IMG/VR virus record: IMGVR_UViG_3300029495_000074
Direction: 5' to 3' (one strand)
Length of the DNA stretch: 6,070 nucleotides
Source of the DNA: a virus
The stretch's first letter is position 1. Every line of letters begins with the position of its first letter. Below, piece after piece: positions 1 through 6,070 of this stretch. Position numbers and translations under genes: made by a program. Under the pieces are notes generated by a model. It was not told the DNA's origin and made no database searches. It was given only the letters and a program-made list of their open reading frames with translations.

Positions 1-123
1 ACAAAATAGCGTAATTTGCCCCTGTAAGCCTTTCTGAGCCGTTTTAAAAATTTTTGAACGTCAGGATACAGTAACGTTTGGACGCTTTCAGGGCGCTTCT
101 CTCCCGGCTTCCAGACGTATTGC
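1..123. repeat. Terminal direct repeat, copy 1. Identical to 5948..6070. Interpreted as the assembly overlap of a circular 5947-nt genome.
   Basis: Base-by-base comparison: acaaaatagcgtaatttgcc...ccagacgtattgc occurs at both ends of the window with no mismatch. An ORF reads through the join without a stop. Confidence 0.95.
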
Positions 124-446
124 ACTTTTCGCATGATTTCACCTGTGTTTATAATCATTCCCGGTACATGGTCGTCATCATAGGTTAGTGTAATAAACCA
201 GACTTGTTCTTTTGGATAATCTCGTGCTTCCAATTCTATTCGCGTTGTCCAGTCCTCACGTTGCCTGATTCTGCACCCAATACATTGTCCGCATGGTATT
301 AGCATAATGTTTTTTTGGTACATCAAATCTTCATATTTGAGCTGTTTCCCTGACATTTCAGAAAAACGGGCGAGTGAATACACCCGCCCGCTTATATCTT
401 TGTTGTTCGGGTTGTACAGCCTTATTAATGGCTTGTAGCAACTCAT
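1..446 (-). CDS. VP4: Replication initiation protein VP4 (HUH rolling-circle Rep), N-terminal part. It continues into 5947..5374 across the circular junction. The full gene is 1020 nt (339 aa).
   Basis: Manual reverse-complement translation from ATG 446..444 has no stop: MSCYKPLIRLYNPNNKDISGRVYSLARFSEMSGKQLKYEDLMYQKNIMLIPCGQCIGCRIRQREDWTTRIELEARDYPKEQVWFITLTYDDDHVPG...LRKAYRGKLRYFV. The M-x-C-x-x-P start, CGQCIGCR and FITLTYD motifs are typical of Microviridae VP4. The ATG overlaps the VP2 TGA (ATGA) and has an AGGTGA SD-like element upstream. The frame (codon first bases at positions 2 mod 3) matches the 5374..5904 ORF when joined. It is missing from the ORF track because it runs off the window start. 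Confidence 0.9.
   Translation of the reverse strand, partial: MSCYKPLIRLYNPNNKDISGRVYSLARFSEMSGKQLKYEDLMYQKNIMLIPCGQCIGCRIRQREDWTTRIELEARDYPKEQVWFITLTYDDDHVPGMIINTGEIMRKVQYVWKPGEKRPESVQTLLYPDVQKFLKRLRKAYRGKLRYF
361..390 (-). terminator. Candidate intrinsic terminator or attenuator embedded in the 5' end of VP4, just downstream of the VP2 stop.
   Basis: The minus strand reads CGGGCGgGTG-TATT-CACtCGCCCG followed by TTTTTCT. That gives a 6-bp GC stem plus 3 more bp across one mismatch, a 4-nt loop and a T-tract. Because it lies inside the coding sequence (codons SGRVYSLARFS), its function is an inference. Confidence 0.4.
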
Positions 447-1297
447 TTTAAGTAATCACCTGGCTTTCTTTTTTCTCCGTATTTTCCGGTCTTGTCTTGT
501 GGCGCAATATAGTTTTTCTTTGTCGGTTGTTTTACTGTTGCCTTATCGATTGCCTTATCTGTGCCGCTTGCAACATCTGTTAAGGCTTTCTGAAGTCCGT
601 AAGGTGTCATGTGCGTTGTGCTAAGCATTTGCTGCCAGCTTTGTGCTGCGTTGTACCAGTCGCTTTGTGACCAGCTATAGCTTTCATATGCGTTTGGTAC
701 GAATCCTCCGCTTCTGCTTACTCCCAGTGCGCTGCTGCTTGCTAGTCCCATGCTTGCACCGCTGATTGTTCCGGCACTTCCGCCTGGTGTGCTTGCGCCA
801 CCGTTTGCAAAGGCTAAGATTGGATTAAGTCCTGCCTTGCGCATATCTTCCACTGCTCGTTGATATGCCGTGTTTGACATGTGCTCTTGCCACTCTCTGT
901 TTGCTAGTGCTTCCGCGCTGTTGTAGTTCATGGCTACGCTGTTTTCGATGTGATTATATACGCCTTGCATGATTGCTTGTAAGGTGTTATAGCCCATTTG
1001 TTTAAGCATACTTTGACTGTTGTATTTGCCTTGCATTGCTGCTTCCTGTCCTTGGTATGCGTATGCTTGTTTTAGCCACTCGTCTTCTTGTTTAATGTTT
1101 GTTCCGGCTTGGCTACCGCTTATTGAGTGCCCGCCGCCCTGGTTTATGCTACCGCCCTGGCTTTGGCTGTTACCTGTTTGTCCCCATCCGCCGAATGCTC
1201 CGGCTATGTTTTTAGCTGCTCCCGCGAATGTGCCGATTGTGTTTGCTACGTTTCCCGCTACGTTGAGCGCTGTTAAAAGTCTTGATAATCCTGTCAT
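443..1297 (-). CDS. VP2: Minor capsid / DNA pilot protein VP2 (284 aa).
   Basis: The position directly after VP1 fits gokushovirus synteny. It has a Gly/Ala-rich hydrophobic N-terminus, a G/Q/S low-complexity tract and a conserved-looking core ...HMSNTAYQRAVEDMRKAGLNPILAFANGG.... The stop TGA 443..445 overlaps the VP4 ATG. Confidence 0.8.
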   Translation of the reverse strand: MTGLSRLLTALNVAGNVANTIGTFAGAAKNIAGAFGGWGQTGNSQSQGGSINQGGGHSISGSQAGTNIKQEDEWLKQAYAYQGQEAAMQGKYNSQSMLKQMGYNTLQAIMQGVYNHIENSVAMNYNSAEALANREWQEHMSNTAYQRAVEDMRKAGLNPILAFANGGASTPGGSAGTISGASMGLASSSALGVSRSGGFVPNAYESYSWSQSDWYNAAQSWQQMLSTTHMTPYGLQKALTDVASGTDKAIDKATVKQPTKKNYIAPQDKTGKYGEKRKPGDYLK

Positions 1298-1299
1298 TT

Positions 1300-1324
1300 A
1301 AAAATAGCCCGGATTTCTCCGGGC
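1300..1324 (-). terminator. Intrinsic-terminator-like hairpin in the VP1-VP2 intergenic gap.
   Basis: The minus strand reads GCCCGGA-GAAA-TCCGGGC (1324..1307; 7-bp GC-rich stem, GAAA tetraloop) followed by TATTTTTAA and the VP2 ATG (1297). It sits between the AAAGGAGG SD and the VP2 start codon. Confidence 0.6.
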
Positions 1325-1335
1325 TTCCTCCTTTC

Positions 1336-3033
1336 TTACAGTTTGTACAAGCCCGGTACGCTGTACAAAGGTATCCGTCTTGTGGTCTTGTTTGCTACGC
1401 GGATTGCGCCAAAAAATTGCGGCTCGTCCTGTACGATGAGCGTGCGTGCAATTTCTTCTTTTCCTTCTGTCATCCATTCTTGCGACAGTGTCGGTACAGT
1501 CGAGTAGTTGTCGGCGTAGTGCCAGAAGTCCAGCGGACCTGTCGCGTTGCTTCTCATTTTGCCGGATACGCGGTTAGGCTTCATTCGATAGTCTGCCCAA
1601 GCTTCTTGGTAACCAAATGTTTCTTCGTCTGTTGCTTCTCCGGTCAACATGATTTCCTTTTTCTTCACAGGCTGTTCGCCCAAGTTTGCAAACTGAGGCA
1701 CGTAGTAGTCTAACCTGTCCGTTCTGCTCCAAAAACGTTCCAGGCCTTGCTGGTAACTGTGATTGTGTCGCACACAACAGACACCGATTACGAACCCGTG
1801 TTCCTCAAAGGACTTTGTAAAACTGCTTTCGTTGATGGGTGTTACTGACATTGCGCCAGTTTCGCCGATCGGCGTGTCTGTGTCGCTTTTCTGTCCGCTG
1901 GTTTGTACGATCTGGTTCATGTTGACGCGGTATCTGCCACCGCCCAGGTACTCCGGTACTTGTACTGTTTTATCCGAGATTACCACATCCCATAGTGCCT
2001 GTACCTGCTCACGGTATCTGCTACCACCTCTTGCCAGCGCTTCGTAATATTGCTGTACTGCTACGGCTTTTCGCAAGTCGTTGATTGTTGCGGCGGAGAC
2101 TGATGCGAGGTCTGCGCCTAGGTATACTACGCTGTGTTCCGACCCCGTTCCGTCTCCAATGGCTAAGTATGCTGATCCTGTGCCTCCATCTTCTGCGATT
2201 GCATACAGTTTGTCTTTGATATTGGTCGGGTTTGTGTTTCCGTCATGAAAGCTGTTTACATATAGAGGTGCTTTTTCGTTAAATTTGTCACTTGTGTATC
2301 CGGTTATTCTTGCATTACCTTGCATCGGCAGCATTACTTCTGGCCCGCGCTGCGGATACGGTAAGCAGCTGGTAAAGTAGTCGTGGAATTTGCTGACCGG
2401 TAAACAATAGCCCCCTTTGTATGCGTTTTTTAGTCTATTTTCAATTGTTGCTTCTTTTTCGTTTATTCCGCTTTTTGTTCCTGTGTCGTAAACCACATCT
2501 TGGCTTGCCGTTTGGATTGTTGCTGCGTTTTCAACGTTTTCGTCTCTGAAAAATTCATTCCATATTTTTACGTATGCTCTGACTGGTAGTGCGTTGATAG
2601 CGAATGTGTTCTTTATTTTTGTCGGCACTCCCATGTAGTCAAGGATAGTTCCTTCCGCTGGTTTTGGAATTCCTCCTCCTGTTACGGTTATCACAATTTT
2701 TGGTACTTTGTAATTTTTTTCTGGCATCCAAGGTGTGTCTTCTACTTCTCCCATGAATTTTTTGAAGTCATCCCATAAAATGCGGTTGGGACAATAGAAA
2801 TAATAGAAGTCAATGAATGCATCATCCATCACCGGATACTTTGGCGTGGTCATTCTTATGATTGCGCTTGTGTCTACGCTGAACGTATCGCCTGGAAGCA
2901 CTTCGTCCACGTAGAACGGAATCAGTTTGCCGGCATCAAACGTTGTTAAAATCGTCTGGTCACGGTTGAATCTTGTTCGACTTGCTTTCATTTCTGGGAT
3001 TTGGTTGAAGTGCCGTTCATTGTTTCGATTCAC
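1336..3033 (-). CDS. VP1: Major capsid protein VP1 (F-like jelly-roll), 565 aa, GTG start.
   Basis: Size and N-terminus are typical of the Microviridae MCP: ...HFNQIPEMKASRTRFNRDQTILTTFDAGKLIPFYVDEVLPGDTF.... The start codon is GTG (plus-strand cac 3031..3033) with AAGGAGG 7 nt upstream. GTGA overlaps the VP3 stop. Confidence 0.95.
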   Translation of the reverse strand: MNRNNERHFNQIPEMKASRTRFNRDQTILTTFDAGKLIPFYVDEVLPGDTFSVDTSAIIRMTTPKYPVMDDAFIDFYYFYCPNRILWDDFKKFMGEVEDTPWMPEKNYKVPKIVITVTGGGIPKPAEGTILDYMGVPTKIKNTFAINALPVRAYVKIWNEFFRDENVENAATIQTASQDVVYDTGTKSGINEKEATIENRLKNAYKGGYCLPVSKFHDYFTSCLPYPQRGPEVMLPMQGNARITGYTSDKFNEKAPLYVNSFHDGNTNPTNIKDKLYAIAEDGGTGSAYLAIGDGTGSEHSVVYLGADLASVSAATINDLRKAVAVQQYYEALARGGSRYREQVQALWDVVISDKTVQVPEYLGGGRYRVNMNQIVQTSGQKSDTDTPIGETGAMSVTPINESSFTKSFEEHGFVIGVCCVRHNHSYQQGLERFWSRTDRLDYYVPQFANLGEQPVKKKEIMLTGEATDEETFGYQEAWADYRMKPNRVSGKMRSNATGPLDFWHYADNYSTVPTLSQEWMTEGKEEIARTLIVQDEPQFFGAIRVANKTTRRIPLYSVPGLYKL

Positions 3034-3428
3034 TTTTCTCCCTCCTTTGCTTCAGGTTCTGCTTTTGTTTTTTCCGCTTCCATTTTTTTTAGCTCTTCAA
3101 GCTTCATTGCGTTTGCTTGTGCGGTTGCAATCATGCGGTGGTACTCGTGGATGTTTTGCGGAAATTCGGTAATGTCTGTGTATGTACCGTTTAATGCTCC
3201 TTCTGATAAACTTTTAAGAAACTGTGGGTCAAAACTTGCTTTTCGGACAATGCTTTTGATATCGCATTCGTCTGCATAGCTTTCGATTTCTTGTTGGATG
3301 TCGATTGGTGCAGTTTCTTGGAGTACTTCTTGTCCTTTTTCGTCTTTCGTCCAGACGTATTGCTTTCGGAATTTTTCTCCGCTTTCAGAAAAGAAGGGCT
3401 CGCGCCCTTCTTCGTATCGTTTATTCAT
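3030..3428 (-). CDS. VP3: Internal scaffolding protein VP3 (132 aa).
   Basis: It lies immediately upstream of VP1, as in gokushoviruses. It is acidic and helical with a Lys/Glu-rich C-terminus. The start was chosen at ATG 3428 because GGGAGGG lies 8 nt upstream and the ATG overlaps the VP5 stop (ATGAATAA). The longer track ORF to 3548 lacks a usable SD. Confidence 0.7.
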   Translation of the reverse strand: MNKRYEEGREPFFSESGEKFRKQYVWTKDEKGQEVLQETAPIDIQQEIESYADECDIKSIVRKASFDPQFLKSLSEGALNGTYTDITEFPQNIHEYHRMIATAQANAMKLEELKKMEAEKTKAEPEAKEGEK

Positions 3429-3660
3429 TCGGCTTGCCCTCCCATGTTTTTTCCTTTTCGTTTGTAAATTCGCCGGTTTCGTCTTCAAAAACCGCCAGCT
3501 TAAAGCCGGTATAGTCGCCTGGCGCCTGTCCAACAAACGTTTTTTCATCCTTTGCCATAACGTTGCACATTCGTGCGAATGTTGCGTTGTTCTTGCTCTC
3601 TCCTACCCATGCATAGCATTTTGCCACGCTGTCCCACAAGCCGAAATATTCATGCTTCAT
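3421..3660 (-). CDS. VP5: VP5-like nonstructural protein (79 aa).
   Basis: MKHEYFGLWDSVAKCYAWV...ATFARMCN...PGDYTGFKLAVFEDETGEF matches my recollection of the gokushovirus VP5 pattern (x-D-S-K-A-x-x-Y near the N-terminus, D-F/Y-T-L-F-E-L-G-x-F-D-x-x-T-G later). The AAAGGAGAG SD lies upstream of ATG 3660. Its position upstream of VP3 is syntenic. Confidence 0.7.
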   Translation of the reverse strand: MKHEYFGLWDSVAKCYAWVGESKNNATFARMCNVMAKDEKTFVGQAPGDYTGFKLAVFEDETGEFTNEKEKTWEGKPNE

Positions 3661-3679
3661 GTTATTTACTCTCCTTTGT

Positions 3680-3781
3680 TTACAGCCGGATGCCGCCGCG
3701 CATAGGCTTTTGGCTGAGGTTAATAGTTTTGGTTTTTCGCGCTGTCACGTTGAACATTCGCCGGTCTTTTGCTCCGCTCAT
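3680..3781 (-). CDS. VP8: Small basic DNA-binding/packaging protein, VP8/J-like (33 aa). Not in the supplied ORF track.
   Basis: Manual translation gives MSGAKDRRMFNVTARKTKTINLSQKPMRGGIRL*. It is highly basic, and the C-terminal MRGGIR(L/F) motif matches what I recall for chlamydiamicrovirus ORF8-type proteins. It fills the gap between the 75-aa ORF (stop 3786) and VP5 exactly. No clear SD is present, and the ATG lies 4 nt after the upstream stop, which may indicate coupling. Confidence 0.65.
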   Translation of the reverse strand: MSGAKDRRMFNVTARKTKTINLSQKPMRGGIRL

Positions 3782-3785
3782 TTTT

Positions 3786-4013
3786 TTACGATGTTGTGCC
3801 ATCATTATACTCCCTTCTCATTAATTCCGTTTCGATTGCGTTTGCTAAGGCTTTCATTGCCCAGATTTCATCGATTAACTTATGAGCGTCCTCGATGTTT
3901 GATACTCTTTTGAGCATTTTATACTCGCCTTCTATTTCTTTGTATTTTCGCAAGAGTAGTTCTTGCAATGCTTCTTCGGGCTGGTCTCGTATATTCCATG
4001 TTTTGTACGTCAT
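3786..4013 (-). CDS. Hypothetical protein (75 aa), predicted all-helical and acidic.
   Basis: Start taken at ATG 4013 (MTYKTWNIRDQPEE...) because AAGGAG lies 7 nt upstream and the upstream ORF stops 4 nt before it. The track ORF begins further upstream at 4067 without an SD. I recognise no family. Confidence 0.6.
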   Translation of the reverse strand: MTYKTWNIRDQPEEALQELLLRKYKEIEGEYKMLKRVSNIEDAHKLIDEIWAMKALANAIETELMRREYNDGTTS

Positions 4014-4017
4014 GATT

Positions 4018-4134
4018 TTACTCCTTTTCGTTGATGCTATCGTGCAGTGCGTGATAGATTTCGTCAAGCTTTTCGAGGATTTGCATCATAATGCGGATTG
4101 CCTGTTTGACGTCTTTGATACTGATTAGTGCCAT
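4018..4134 (-). CDS. Hypothetical small protein (38 aa). Not in the supplied ORF track.
   Basis: Manual translation gives MALISIKDVKQAIRIMMQILEKLDEIYHALHDSINEKE*. The AAGGGGG SD lies 6 nt upstream of ATG 4134. It starts 1 nt after the peptidase stop, and its own stop lies 4 nt before the next start, so it fills the gap exactly. Confidence 0.5.
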   Translation of the reverse strand: MALISIKDVKQAIRIMMQILEKLDEIYHALHDSINEKE

Positions 4135-4135
4135 T

Positions 4136-4528
4136 TTATACCCCCTTTCTGTACTTTGCATTGCGTACATCAAAATGTATCCAGTTATCGTATACGATAA
4201 TGCCGCAATTGTTTGGTACGATTTTATTTAGCTCCTTTGCTACGTCTTTTGGTGTCATGCCGTTTACTCGGATATCTGCTGCGCATCCTCTCATGTGGTA
4301 GCTGTACTTTGCACCGCCAACTTTTTTGTTGTGTTCCGGTGTCCGGTATCCGCTGGTGATGATTATCGGTTTGTTGATTGTCTGCCGCAGCATCTCTAGC
4401 AGTGTTACTAGATATTCGTCGATAAACACGATCGGGCTCCCGTCTTTGCACGCAAATTCTTTTACTTTAAAGTGGTTTGTGATTTTTACGTTTCCGTCTG
4501 TGTCTGCGAGATAGCTCTTGATGTTCAT
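4136..4528 (-). CDS. Zinc peptidoglycan peptidase, Peptidase_M15 (M15_3/M15A, LAS-fold) family. Candidate endolysin (130 aa).
   Basis: The family motifs appear in the expected order: F-K-V-K-E-F-A-C-K-D-G, then SGYRTPEHNKKVGGAKYSYHMRGCAADI (the S-x-H-x-x-G-x-A-x-D zinc-ligand motif), then WIHFDV (H-x-D). No N-terminal signal peptide or TM segment is visible. Confidence 0.85.
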   Translation of the reverse strand: MNIKSYLADTDGNVKITNHFKVKEFACKDGSPIVFIDEYLVTLLEMLRQTINKPIIITSGYRTPEHNKKVGGAKYSYHMRGCAADIRVNGMTPKDVAKELNKIVPNNCGIIVYDNWIHFDVRNAKYRKGV

Positions 4529-4534
4529 ATCCTA

Positions 4535-4759
4535 TCATCCTTTCGTTATCTTGTCAATTTCTGATGCGGGATACGTGGCGTAATCTGTGTATGTTATGGT
4601 GTTTAAGATTTGGCTGTCTCGATCGTTGCGCCCGATCAGGTACTCGTCTGTACCGTCTAAGTAATCTATAACGTATTTGTTGCCATATTTTGTCGTTCTT
4701 TTGCTTTCGCCTTTTTTTATCATGTCAATTAGGACTTTTTTTAGATCTTTTTTTCTCAT
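4535..4759 (-). CDS. Hypothetical protein (74 aa), first gene after the promoter.
   Basis: The ORF begins about 40 nt downstream of the predicted transcription start, after a purine-rich leader (GAAAGAAGTGAAAC). It has a basic N-terminus (MRKKDLKKVLIDMIKKGESKR) and a likely beta-rich remainder. Its stop lies 6 nt before the peptidase ATG. I recognise no family. Confidence 0.55.
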   Translation of the reverse strand: MRKKDLKKVLIDMIKKGESKRTTKYGNKYVIDYLDGTDEYLIGRNDRDSQILNTITYTDYATYPASEIDKITKG

Positions 4760-4807: not shown

Positions 4808-4836
4808 ATTATACCACTTTATGCTTTTTTTTGCAA
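4808..4836 (-). promoter_or_regulatory. Near-consensus sigma70/sigmaA promoter with an extended -10, driving the whole minus-strand operon.
   Basis: The minus strand reads TTGCAA (4836..4831), a 17-nt spacer ending in TGG, then TATAAT (4813..4808), i.e. TGnTATAAT. It lies at the downstream edge of the noncoding region, directly upstream of the first ORF. Confidence 0.75.
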
Positions 4837-5002
4837 GTGAATGTTTTTCATCTTAGCGTTAATCGTTTTTTAGTCTTGACTTTCATAGTTTGTTCATTTT
4901 TGTTGCTGGTCTTGCTCCTTTGTTTTGAATGCGCTTTAGCGCTCTTCCGTGCGTAGCGTATGCGGAGCTCGGATAATCCATTCATTGTAAGCGCTGTGCG
5001 CG

Positions 5003-5169
5003 TTTTCAACACTTTCAACAGTTTCAACAGGTTTTCAACATAAAGTTGCACAAAGGTTTTCGTCATTTTGACGGACTTTCAACAATTCAACAAGTTTTCA
5101 ATAAAACTTTCAACAGTGTTTTTTGCTTTTTATTTACGCTTTAGCGTTAAATTTTAGTACTTTTCAACT
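5003..5169. repeat. Array of nine direct yTTTCAACA repeats (TGTTGAAAr on the coding strand): two clusters of four plus one outlier.
   Basis: The 9-mers start at 5003 TTTTCAACA, 5012 CTTTCAACA, 5021 GTTTCAACA and 5032 TTTTCAACA. After a 35-bp spacer holding a CGTCA-TTT-TGACG mini-hairpin (5061..5073), they continue at 5076 CTTTCAACA, 5084 AATTCAACA, 5095 TTTTCAATA and 5107 CTTTCAACA, with an outlier at 5161 TTTTCAACT. Spacing within clusters is 8 to 12 bp. Confidence 0.85.
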
Positions 5170-5253
5170 TTTCCACTACCTCTACTACTACTCCTACAAC
5201 AAGTTATATATTATACGGCGCTTGTGAGCTTGCGAACAATAGCGCCTAAGAGC

Positions 5254-5296
5254 CGCGCGTGCGCGCGTGCGCGCTTCGCGCGCGTGCGCACGTGCG
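5254..5296. other. GC-rich alternating pyrimidine-purine (CG/TG) inverted repeat: a 20-bp hairpin and Z-DNA-prone tract.
   Basis: 5254..5274 (21 nt) and 5277..5296 (20 nt) each alternate Py-Pu perfectly. On the plus strand 5254..5273 pairs with 5296..5277 as 17 Watson-Crick plus 3 G-T pairs with a CTT loop. On the minus strand the three wobbles become A-C mismatches. Confidence 0.8.
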
Positions 5297-5318
5297 ATAA
5301 GAGATAGCTATTTGATAG

Positions 5319-5358
5319 ACCTAGCCCAGTATCTTACTTGATAGGTACTGGGCTAGGT
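5319..5358. other. Perfect 13-bp inverted repeat (stem-loop) 16 nt downstream of the Rep stop. Candidate origin or terminator structure.
   Basis: ACCTAGCCCAGTA (5319..5331) pairs with TACTGGGCTAGGT (5346..5358). The 14-nt loop is TCTTACTTGATAGG, which can tighten to an 8-nt loop TACTTGAT through three further pairs (5332-5345 G-T wobble, 5333-5344, 5334-5343). Confidence 0.8.
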
Positions 5359-5373
5359 GACACTATGACACTG

Positions 5374-6070
5374 TTAAAGTGTCCCTCTCTTCTTCGTTTG
5401 CTTCTTGATTACTCTCTCCCTCGTTTTACACTGTTCTGCAAAGTCTGTGTTCTCATACTTTAGCCGGTTTTCTGCTATCGCTGCTTCTTGTCTGTTCTGT
5501 TTAATTCTCCACAATCTTTGTGGGTTTTCAGCTTCCATTTTCTTTTCATAGTATCGTGGTATCTGCGCGTGCTTTCCGTTTGTACACTGTATATAGCCTT
5601 GTCTCCAGATTTCTGCTTTGTGTTTTTCGTAATAGTTGTCTCCTAAACCCGGCTTTAGGCTCATACATGCAAATGGTTTTGCTTGCCCTAGCTCGTAGTA
5701 TGCGTTTGCTTTTTGACCGTCTATCTCATACATTTTTTTTGTGACGTATCCAGCAACATATCTATATGTTTCCGGCACTGCTTGTGCTATCTGTATTTGA
5801 CCCATGCCCCATAGGTCTGCTAGCCATTTACTTGTAAAGTATCCGTTGTGTTGTATCTTGTATAGGTGTTCTAGGTCTGTTGGTTGCCATCCATACAAGA
5901 TCATGTGGTAATGTGGTCTTGCTGTCTGTTCTCCGTATTCTCCCGCTACAAAATAGCGTAATTTGCCCCTGTAAGCCTTTCTGAGCCGTTTTAAAAATTT
6001 TTGAACGTCAGGATACAGTAACGTTTGGACGCTTTCAGGGCGCTTCTCTCCCGGCTTCCAGACGTATTGC
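5374..6070 (-). CDS. VP4: Replication initiation protein VP4, C-terminal part. 5948..6070 duplicates codons already listed in 1..123.
   Basis: The track ORF 5374..5904 stays open upstream to the window end: ...RYFVAGEYGEQTARPHYHMILYGW... It carries the HUH motif (HYH) and the catalytic tyrosine region YRYVAGYVTKKMY. The stop TAA is at 5374..5376. Confidence 0.9.
   Translation of the reverse strand, partial: QYVWKPGEKRPESVQTLLYPDVQKFLKRLRKAYRGKLRYFVAGEYGEQTARPHYHMILYGWQPTDLEHLYKIQHNGYFTSKWLADLWGMGQIQIAQAVPETYRYVAGYVTKKMYEIDGQKANAYYELGQAKPFACMSLKPGLGDNYYEKHKAEIWRQGYIQCTNGKHAQIPRYYEKKMEAENPQRLWRIKQNRQEAAIAENRLKYENTDFAEQCKTRERVIKKQTKKRGTL
5948..6070. repeat. Terminal direct repeat, copy 2 (redundant with 1..123).
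   Basis: Same 123-nt string as 1..123, so position 5948 is equivalent to position 1. Confidence 0.95.

Follow-up and report, generated by a model that had tools for sequence, protein, structure and literature searches.

A candidate accessory lysis enzyme of tailed-phage endolysin origin in a gut gokushovirus clade without predicted membrane proteins

Peptidoglycan peptidases of the Peptidase_M15_3 family have been known from small gut phages since 2012, when Roux et al. found them in five human-gut Gokushovirinae and six Alpavirinae, showed that they were horizontally acquired and Faecalibacterium-related, and proposed that they act as endolysins (PMC3394797). Peptidases have since been recognised as recurrent lysis-associated accessory genes across the microvirus families (Kirchberger et al. 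2022, PMC9239249), and one microvirus hydrolase has been studied at the bench. Gp7 of Ebor, a cultured Tainavirinae microvirus of Rhodobacter capsulatus, is zymogram-positive and occurs in trace amounts in virions; its authors describe it as the first peptidoglycan hydrolase from a single-stranded DNA phage to be verified by experiment (2025, PMC11980548). Here we analyse an M15_3 peptidase gene, called M15 below, in the IMG/VR record IMGVR_UViG_3300029495_000074, a stretch of 6,070 nt that we refer to as the window. An earlier reading of the bare sequence (the original prediction) had implied that the gene was new, described such open reading frames (ORFs) as sporadic in microviruses, and held that cultured microviruses use no muralytic enzyme. 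The publications above overtake the first and last of these claims, and M15 genes are well documented and routinely annotated in gokushoviruses: the GenBank record KX513868 carries the label 'peptidase M15', the MG945xxx records carry 'similar to peptidase', and the homologues of M15 form more than 1,200 protein clusters. The 120 homologues listed all lie on microvirus-sized or shorter contigs, some of them under the name 'MAG TPA: peptidase [Microviridae sp.]'. What stood of the original prediction is the enzyme family, the active site and the lack of a membrane partner.

The first 123 nt of the window (1-123) are exactly identical to its last 123 nt (5948-6070), and it therefore represents the circular genome of a gut gokushovirus, complete at 5,947 nt. 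The gene order is the usual one for gokushoviruses, with all genes on the minus strand (Table 1). In GenBank the nearest record is that of Human gut gokushovirus SH-CHD5 (KX513868), with 83% nucleotide identity over 89% of the genome, and further relatives come from human, pig and monkey faeces. In KX513868 and the MG945xxx records the M15_3 gene sits at the same position between VP4 and VP5, and the proteins are 73-78% identical to M15. The window enzyme thus shares with the gut Gokushovirinae and Alpavirinae peptidases the family, the proposed endolysin role and the affinity to Faecalibacterium/Clostridiales homologues. The differences from the GenBank gokushoviruses are allelic only, but the window adds a rare ORF (ORF74) between a promoter-like site and M15. 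For all clade-wide comparisons we used the window together with 80 IMG/VR relatives that carry M15, giving 81 genomes.

The M15 gene is an ATG-to-stop ORF encoding a single-domain protein of 130 aa (14.8 kDa, isoelectric point (pI) 9.4). Its translation contains the SGYR, SYHMRGCAADI and WIHFD motifs from which the original prediction had assigned it to the M15/LAS peptidases, and a profile search bears out that assignment. The protein matches Pfam PF08291 (Peptidase_M15_3, family M15A) over the whole domain, model positions 1-108 of 108, with an E-value of 1.2e-23 and 83.7 bits against a cut-off of 23.2; it also matches PHROG 894 'endolysin' (E 5.4e-45) and, more weakly, PF05951 (DUF882/M15_2). 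There is no Pfam match at E <= 0.01 to VanX (PF01427) or VanY (PF02557), which represent M15B/M15D. Identity with the L,D-endopeptidase MepK (YcbK) was considered and rejected, since the score to NCBIfam NF053624 is 43 bits against a cut-off of 185 and the protein is also without the hydrophobic N-terminal export segment. The zinc triad H78/D85/H118 (H-x6-D...H), R62 and the W116-I-H118 motif of the family are all in place. The residues R62, H78, D85, W116, H118 and D120 are invariant in 81 of 81 genomes, so the His/Asp/His triad is kept throughout the alignment. Across the same genomes the median pairwise ratio of nonsynonymous to synonymous substitution rates (dN/dS) is 0.16, with dS close to saturation at ~1.07. 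The invariant active site and the low dN/dS indicate that the enzyme is intact and under selection.

Structural comparison points in the same direction. The sole solved structure detectable from the M15 sequence is 1LBU, the zinc D-Ala-D-Ala carboxypeptidase of Streptomyces albus G, whose R138, H154 and D161 align with R62, H78 and D85 of M15, the aligned region including the SxHxxGxAxD zinc-binding motif. Unlike M15, the 1LBU enzyme is a secreted bacterial protein of 213 aa with an N-terminal wall-binding domain. The AlphaFold2 model of M15 has a predicted local distance difference test (pLDDT) score of 84 and a predicted template-modelling score (pTM) of 0.79, and its PDB matches are the classical LAS set: 1LBU is the best, followed by Hedgehog N-terminal domains, VanY/VanXYc, ChiX and the T5 endolysin (EndoT5). 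These matches have probabilities of up to 1.0, but the best TM-score is only ~0.47, and 1LBU is 26% identical over 90 aligned columns; VanY and VanXYc show a distant fold likeness only (TM-score 0.38-0.43). Against predicted M15 peptidases of tailed phages the TM-score rises to 0.82, and several 'Microvirus mar' peptidases are matched too. The modelled fold is therefore LAS-type, in line with what had been suggested from the motifs.

The nearest characterised enzymes are the single-domain M15A endolysins of tailed phages. LysPM1 of Proteus phage Homer, the peptidase M15A of Burkholderia phage ST79 and Spp64 of Shewanella phage Spp001 likewise consist of a single Peptidase_M15_3 domain of ~116-130 aa; they share the H/D/H zinc triad and the (W/F)xH motif, and their top structural match is also 1LBU. 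LysPM1 is a 116-aa protein with demonstrated zinc-dependent lytic activity, and the triad and WxH motif of M15 correspond to those described for it (PMC13461873). Judging from family membership, active site and constraint, M15 is probably a functional zinc-dependent peptidoglycan peptidase of family M15A, with muralytic activity as its expected function.

We scanned the window for membrane partners in all three coding-strand frames of the circularised genome, ignoring start codons and using 19-residue Kyte-Doolittle windows with a threshold of 1.6. No transmembrane-like segment was found on the coding strand, where the highest hydropathy of any stop-free 19-residue segment is 1.13. These frames contain no spanin-like protein, and no lysis peptide of the phiX174 E type, a short transmembrane peptide that is often overprinted, was found in them from any start. 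M15 itself carries neither a signal peptide nor a signal-arrest-release (SAR) domain: its N-terminus (MNIKSYLADTDGNVKITNHFKVKEFACKDG) is hydrophilic and the top window of the whole protein is 1.08. In the 80 relatives we screened coding-strand ORFs of at least 20 aa for a hydropathy of at least 1.6, and found no small transmembrane holin accompanying the endolysin either there or on the coding strand of the window. The claim that M15 has no holin, signal peptide or transmembrane partner thus holds beyond the window, and the absence of transmembrane and signal-peptide proteins is clade-wide (81 genomes), not peculiar to one genome. The Gly/Ala-rich N-terminus of VP2 ranks among the most hydrophobic coding-strand segments, reaching 1.10 in the window and 1.1-1.59 in the relatives, where it is usually the top segment of the genome.

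Three of the 80 relatives did contain ORFs or sets of ORFs that reach 1.6, and we judged all of them spurious: one ORF lies overprinted within VP1, another (25 aa) sits where a contig ends, and the third case is a group of ORFs on the 10.9-kb contig IMGVR_UViG_3300045988_007630 (L011). On the coding strand of this last contig, hydrophobic ORFs follow one another over a long stretch (~600-4050); we interpret the stretch as misassembled in inverted orientation and the contig as a likely chimera. On the opposite strand of the window, a hydrophobic 88-aa ORF was rejected as it has no counterpart in any relative. A 57-aa antisense ORF opposite the 3′ end of M15 is stop-free in 52 of 81 genomes, compared with 32.9 +/- 4.0 in synonymous-codon shuffles, and a second antisense frame shows a similar excess (51 versus 25.8), the compared sequences being phylogenetically related. 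The 57-aa product is not transmembrane-like (best hydropathy ~1.1 by hand calculation), and the stop-free excess of both frames is probably a compositional or phylogenetic effect.

This arrangement differs from described lysis systems in several ways. Like phiX174, whose protein E is the example of single-gene lysis, the gokushovirus is a small phage without a holin-endolysin cassette; however, E is an overprinted transmembrane peptide that inhibits MraY, whereas the gokushovirus candidate is an enzyme and there is no transmembrane peptide. Phage ST79 lyses with a holin and LysB/LysC beside its endolysin, in contrast to the gokushovirus clade with no transmembrane protein. Ebor Gp7 (~146 aa) resembles M15 as an accessory peptidoglycan hydrolase of a microvirus that may serve in lysis or in entry, a likeness drawn apart from enzyme family. 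Ebor belongs to another subfamily with another host, encodes a 45-aa predicted membrane protein, and has a hydrolase with experimentally shown activity.

Relatives without M15 show that the enzyme does not account for lysis on its own. Distant relatives whose VP1 is ~45% identical have the same ORF38-ORF41-VP5-VP3 module and no M15, and in four of the five such genomes examined there is no transmembrane ORF. The exception is L133 (KT264799), in which a 24-aa coding-strand ORF at 3972-4046 (MVDVIQSIAIMLLSIAVII, hydropathy 2.42) is the only transmembrane-like candidate in the five. Since M15-less relatives are also without transmembrane proteins, the lineage must be able to lyse its hosts by a route independent of both M15 and transmembrane proteins. 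Such a route argues for M15 as an add-on and not a complete lysis mechanism.

The bacterial homologues of M15 indicate where the module came from. Homologues with 40-50% identity (40 loci) are mostly from Clostridia, including Lachnospiraceae, Oscillospiraceae, Faecalibacterium and Lacrimispora; many are 280-385 aa long, and 32 of the 40 loci have a same-strand transmembrane ORF within 1.5 kb. Pfam searches of the Clostridia loci find M15_3 joined to NAGPA, Phage_lysozyme or PG_binding_1, and in L085 a Phage_holin_4_1 gene lies directly upstream of the M15_3 gene. Clostridia prophage endolysins (e.g. L085, L096, L111) therefore share with M15 a catalytic module that is 40-50% identical, but combine it with NAGPA, phage-lysozyme or PG_binding_1 modules and with adjacent holins such as Phage_holin_4_1, whereas the microviral gene has the M15 module only. 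Set against these multidomain, holin-adjacent homologues, the bare microviral gene appears to be a tailed-prophage endolysin reduced to its catalytic module, with neither the holin nor the accessory domains carried over, and we regard the multidomain Clostridia prophage endolysins as the likely donor pool. An integrated gokushovirus prophage carrying a close M15 was not found in a scan of genome contigs, where the best match was 50% identical. As a separate observation, a bicatalytic architecture of M15_3 with NAGPA (phosphodiester glycosidase), in either domain order, occurs in L083, L085, L087 and L100, which are contigs of Clostridia metagenome-assembled genomes.

Similarity of M15 alone gives an ambiguous answer as to the host, since endolysins of Vibrio phages (51% identity) are as close as the Clostridia/Faecalibacterium homologues (44-50%). 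Shine-Dalgarno (SD) sequences precede several genes of the window, including VP1, VP5, ORF38, ORF41 and ORF75, and SD sequences before genes argue against a Bacteroidetes host. For gut 'Gokushoviridae', Clostridiales hosts have been predicted from CRISPR spacers by Shah et al. 2023 (PMC10159846). From these published CRISPR predictions we infer that the host group is monoderm Clostridia.

Taking these results together, we hold with moderate confidence that M15 is a catalytic module captured from a tailed-phage endolysin that works as an accessory lysis enzyme. An ancestor of the gut gokushovirus clade would have captured the module horizontally, without a holin, a wall-binding domain or a second catalytic domain, and the gene would have been inherited since under purifying selection. 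The enzyme would accumulate in the cytoplasm and most likely act at the end of infection. The lineage's own lysis function, independent of any transmembrane protein, would breach the cytoplasmic membrane first; M15 would then cut peptide stems or cross-links of the murein, and its action would speed or complete wall breakdown and virion release. The VP2 pilot protein and the conserved small proteins ORF38 and ORF75 are candidates for the source of the membrane damage.

Several points weigh against this proposal. No export route is encoded, be it a holin, a signal peptide, a SAR domain or a spanin-like protein, so the access of M15 to the wall has to rest on another function. The original prediction had rightly called the route to the murein unexplained; we found no experimental study of it in the literature searched. 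Endolysins built from one domain more typically belong to Gram-negative hosts, which sits poorly with a monoderm Clostridia host, and the equally close Vibrio phage endolysins (51%) leave the host ambiguous by homology. Moreover, the activity of M15, the timing of its expression and the host are all points that we infer.

The same enzyme might be used at entry instead of exit. Packaged in or on the virion, M15 would open the peptidoglycan locally for DNA delivery by VP2, a role that requires no holin and would matter most for a thick-walled monoderm Clostridium host; the predicted host group is indeed Clostridiales. Some large proteins that tailed phages carry in the virion or tail contain M15A domains, and among the BFVD matches of M15 are Gp5 OB-fold proteins, a cell-wall hydrolase of 1,191 aa and the phiM12 'murein endopeptidase K', but the closest homologues are endolysins in lysis cassettes and not tail lysins. 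While Ebor Gp7 leaves traces in virions (PMC11980548), no fusion of M15 to VP1 or VP2 was found in any of the 81 genomes or among the 120 top homologues (117-200 aa), and at 5,947 nt the genome is already close to the top of the size range seen in its relatives, which leaves little internal capsid volume. A few relatives fuse M15 to the highly basic protein ORF72 (pI 11.4), whose possible DNA binding might allow co-packaging; however, the internal M15 start keeps its SD sequence in these fusions, which may therefore be incidental. The M15-less relatives of the same broader lineage must in addition enter their hosts without the enzyme, and we consider an entry role unlikely.

Two further explanations keep M15 as a lysis protein in its own right. 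As an enzymatic 'amurin', it would stay in the cytoplasm and cleave precursors of the wall (D-Ala-D-Ala, UDP-MurNAc-pentapeptide, or lipid I/II on the inner leaflet), so that transpeptidation is starved and growing cells autolyse. Such an enzyme would parallel phiX174 E, Qbeta A2 and LysM by catalytic means and would dispense with a holin, which fits the lack of an export route in any of the 81 genomes and accounts in which small phages are described as typically lysing through blocked wall synthesis. The closest solved structure, 1LBU, is the M15A type enzyme and was deposited as a muramoyl-pentapeptide carboxypeptidase, and the precursor-acting VanY and VanXY are among the fold matches; yet neither the VanY nor the VanX profile is matched at E <= 0.01, and the characterised phage members of the family (LysPM1, ST79, Spp64) degrade the mature wall. 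Because the homologues are multidomain muralytic enzymes in holin-endolysin cassettes, and no sequence feature separates the microviral copies from these cassette endolysins, we think precursor cleavage rather improbable. M15 could also be the sole lysis protein if it crossed the membrane by an unrecognised, holin-independent route such as host-mediated secretion of a leaderless endolysin, or, in an alternative form, if enzyme released from early-lysing cells attacked neighbouring monoderm cells from outside. Holin-independent export is documented for tailed-phage endolysins in published accounts (PMC7143992, PMC8541568), M15 is in most relatives directly preceded by a strong promoter-like site, and a monoderm host would expose its wall to an enzyme arriving from outside. 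M15 has, however, no signal, SAR or transmembrane segment for the journey and no wall-binding domain to hold it on target cells, and relatives with neither M15 nor transmembrane proteins also have to lyse their hosts; taken jointly, we regard these two forms as very unlikely. An accessory role at exit, after membrane damage by another function, remains the reading that we favour.

Table 1. Genes and other elements of the window (positions run from low to high; ~ marks approximate values)
Feature	Position	Strand	Description
VP4	from 446, across the circle junction, to 5374	-	replication initiator, 339 aa
Non-coding stretch			~300 nt, between VP4 and ORF72
Hairpin 1	~5367-5383	-	perfect; GACACT-TTAAC-AGTGTC
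Hairpin 2	~5320-5356	-	perfect; CCTAGCCCAGTA...TACTGGGCTAGG
CGCGC-rich tract	~5253-5296	-	follows the two hairpins
Iteron-like array	5004-5169	-	repeats of TGTTGAAA
ORF72	4848-5066	-	72 aa, very basic, pI 11.4; upstream of M15
Promoter-like site	4808-4836	-	TTGCAA-17-TG-TATAAT, extended -10 TG; consensus scan, 10/12; pattern match only
ORF74	4535-4759	-	74-aa hydrophilic orphan, between promoter-like site and M15
M15 gene	4136-4528	-	130 aa
ORF38	4018-4134	-	38-aa coiled-coil-like (heptad) microprotein, MALISIKDVKQAIRIMMQILEKLDEIYHALHDSINEKE
ORF93	3786-4067	-	likely true start gives ORF75
ORF75	3786-4013	-	75-aa product
ORF41	3680-3805	-	basic VP8-like protein
VP5	3421-3660	-	
VP3	3030-3548	-	scaffold protein
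VP1	1336-3033	-	major capsid protein; Pfam Phage_F, E 6.8e-136
VP2	443-1297	-	DNA-pilot protein; PHROG 8742 'pilot protein for DNA ejection', E 1.7e-125
Antisense ORF, 88 aa	4690-4956	+	hydrophobic
Antisense ORF, 57 aa	4128-4301	+	opposite the M15 3′ end

The genes around M15 are listed in Table 1; VP4 had been missing from the ORF listing because it spans the circle junction. Immediately downstream of M15, ORF38 is translationally coupled to M15: it starts 2 nt past the M15 stop codon with a GGGGG SD sequence ahead of it. We found ORF38 in 76 of the 80 relatives and in 33 GenBank gokushoviruses, and it is annotated in almost none of the latter. Its homologues form 19 representative clusters, 18 of which are 30-74 aa in length, the weakest match being a 452-aa protein. 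In the five M15-less gokushoviruses ORF38 is 66-75% identical and so better conserved than VP1. This occurrence rules it out as an M15-specific partner; kept in the M15-less relatives, ORF38 is a core gene of the lineage.

Upstream of M15 the picture is more variable. The original prediction had placed M15 second after the strongest promoter, and the order fits, with ORF74 and then M15 following the promoter-like site of Table 1; however, the 4 promoter-like sites in the region compare with 4.4 expected and are not above chance. Among the relatives, 70 of 80 have a sigma-70/sigma-A-like site scoring at least 10/12 upstream of M15; from its -10 hexamer to the ATG the median distance is 30 nt. 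ORF74 has no Pfam, PHROG or NCBIfam match, and neither the 80 IMG/VR relatives nor INPHARED contain it. It is represented by 9 protein clusters in 5.8 billion, with 70-100% identity and most of them on ~6-kb contigs, and its exact protein sequence is already on record. ORF74 is thus a genuine, very narrowly distributed orphan, and this distribution rules it out as a general partner of M15.

ORF72 is more widespread, being present in 57 of 80 relatives, and its homologues are found on microvirus-sized contigs only and have no Pfam domain. In-frame fusions of ORF72 to M15 occur at 3 of 80 loci (L071, 4374-5024; L033, 54-620; L056, 1-543), with products of ~180-216 aa. Among the M15 homologues, the 200-aa P0087 is extended at its N-terminus by an ORF72-like part; P0101 and P0117 have the same length. 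As a sign of a functional link these fusions are weak: they are few, the M15 ATG within them retains its own SD sequence, and the ORF72 N-terminus (VENLLKLLKVLKT) is repeat-encoded because an iteron-like array straddles the ORF72 start codon. The array has 6 exact and 3 one-mismatch copies of its repeat, with no exact copies elsewhere in the window, and clustering of at least 4 exact copies inside 200 nt is conserved in 50 of 81 genomes. The repeats could be binding sites for Rep or a regulator. In the non-coding region after VP4 (5253-5385, minus strand), two perfect hairpins are followed by a CGCGC-rich tract that is unusual within the A-rich strand, and this region may be a replication origin or a terminator region.

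Gokushoviruses are among the most abundant viruses of the human gut. Our analysis leaves knowledge of the M15 gene itself unchanged, but it adds four points that narrow the experiments needed: the absence of membrane proteins extends across the clade; the likely donors are multidomain Clostridia prophage endolysins with holins, of which the catalytic module alone was kept; there are M15-less relatives that also do without membrane proteins, so that M15 cannot be the whole lysis mechanism; and a strongly conserved, essentially unannotated 38-aa protein is encoded immediately 3′ of M15. How a leaderless M15 acts in a clade without membrane proteins is a modest but fair question. If M15 did cleave wall precursors in the cytoplasm, it would carry out by catalysis the protein-antibiotic strategy known from phiX174 E, Qbeta A2 and LysM. 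As the only recognisable lysis-related function that these gokushoviruses carry, M15 offers a concrete starting point for experiments.

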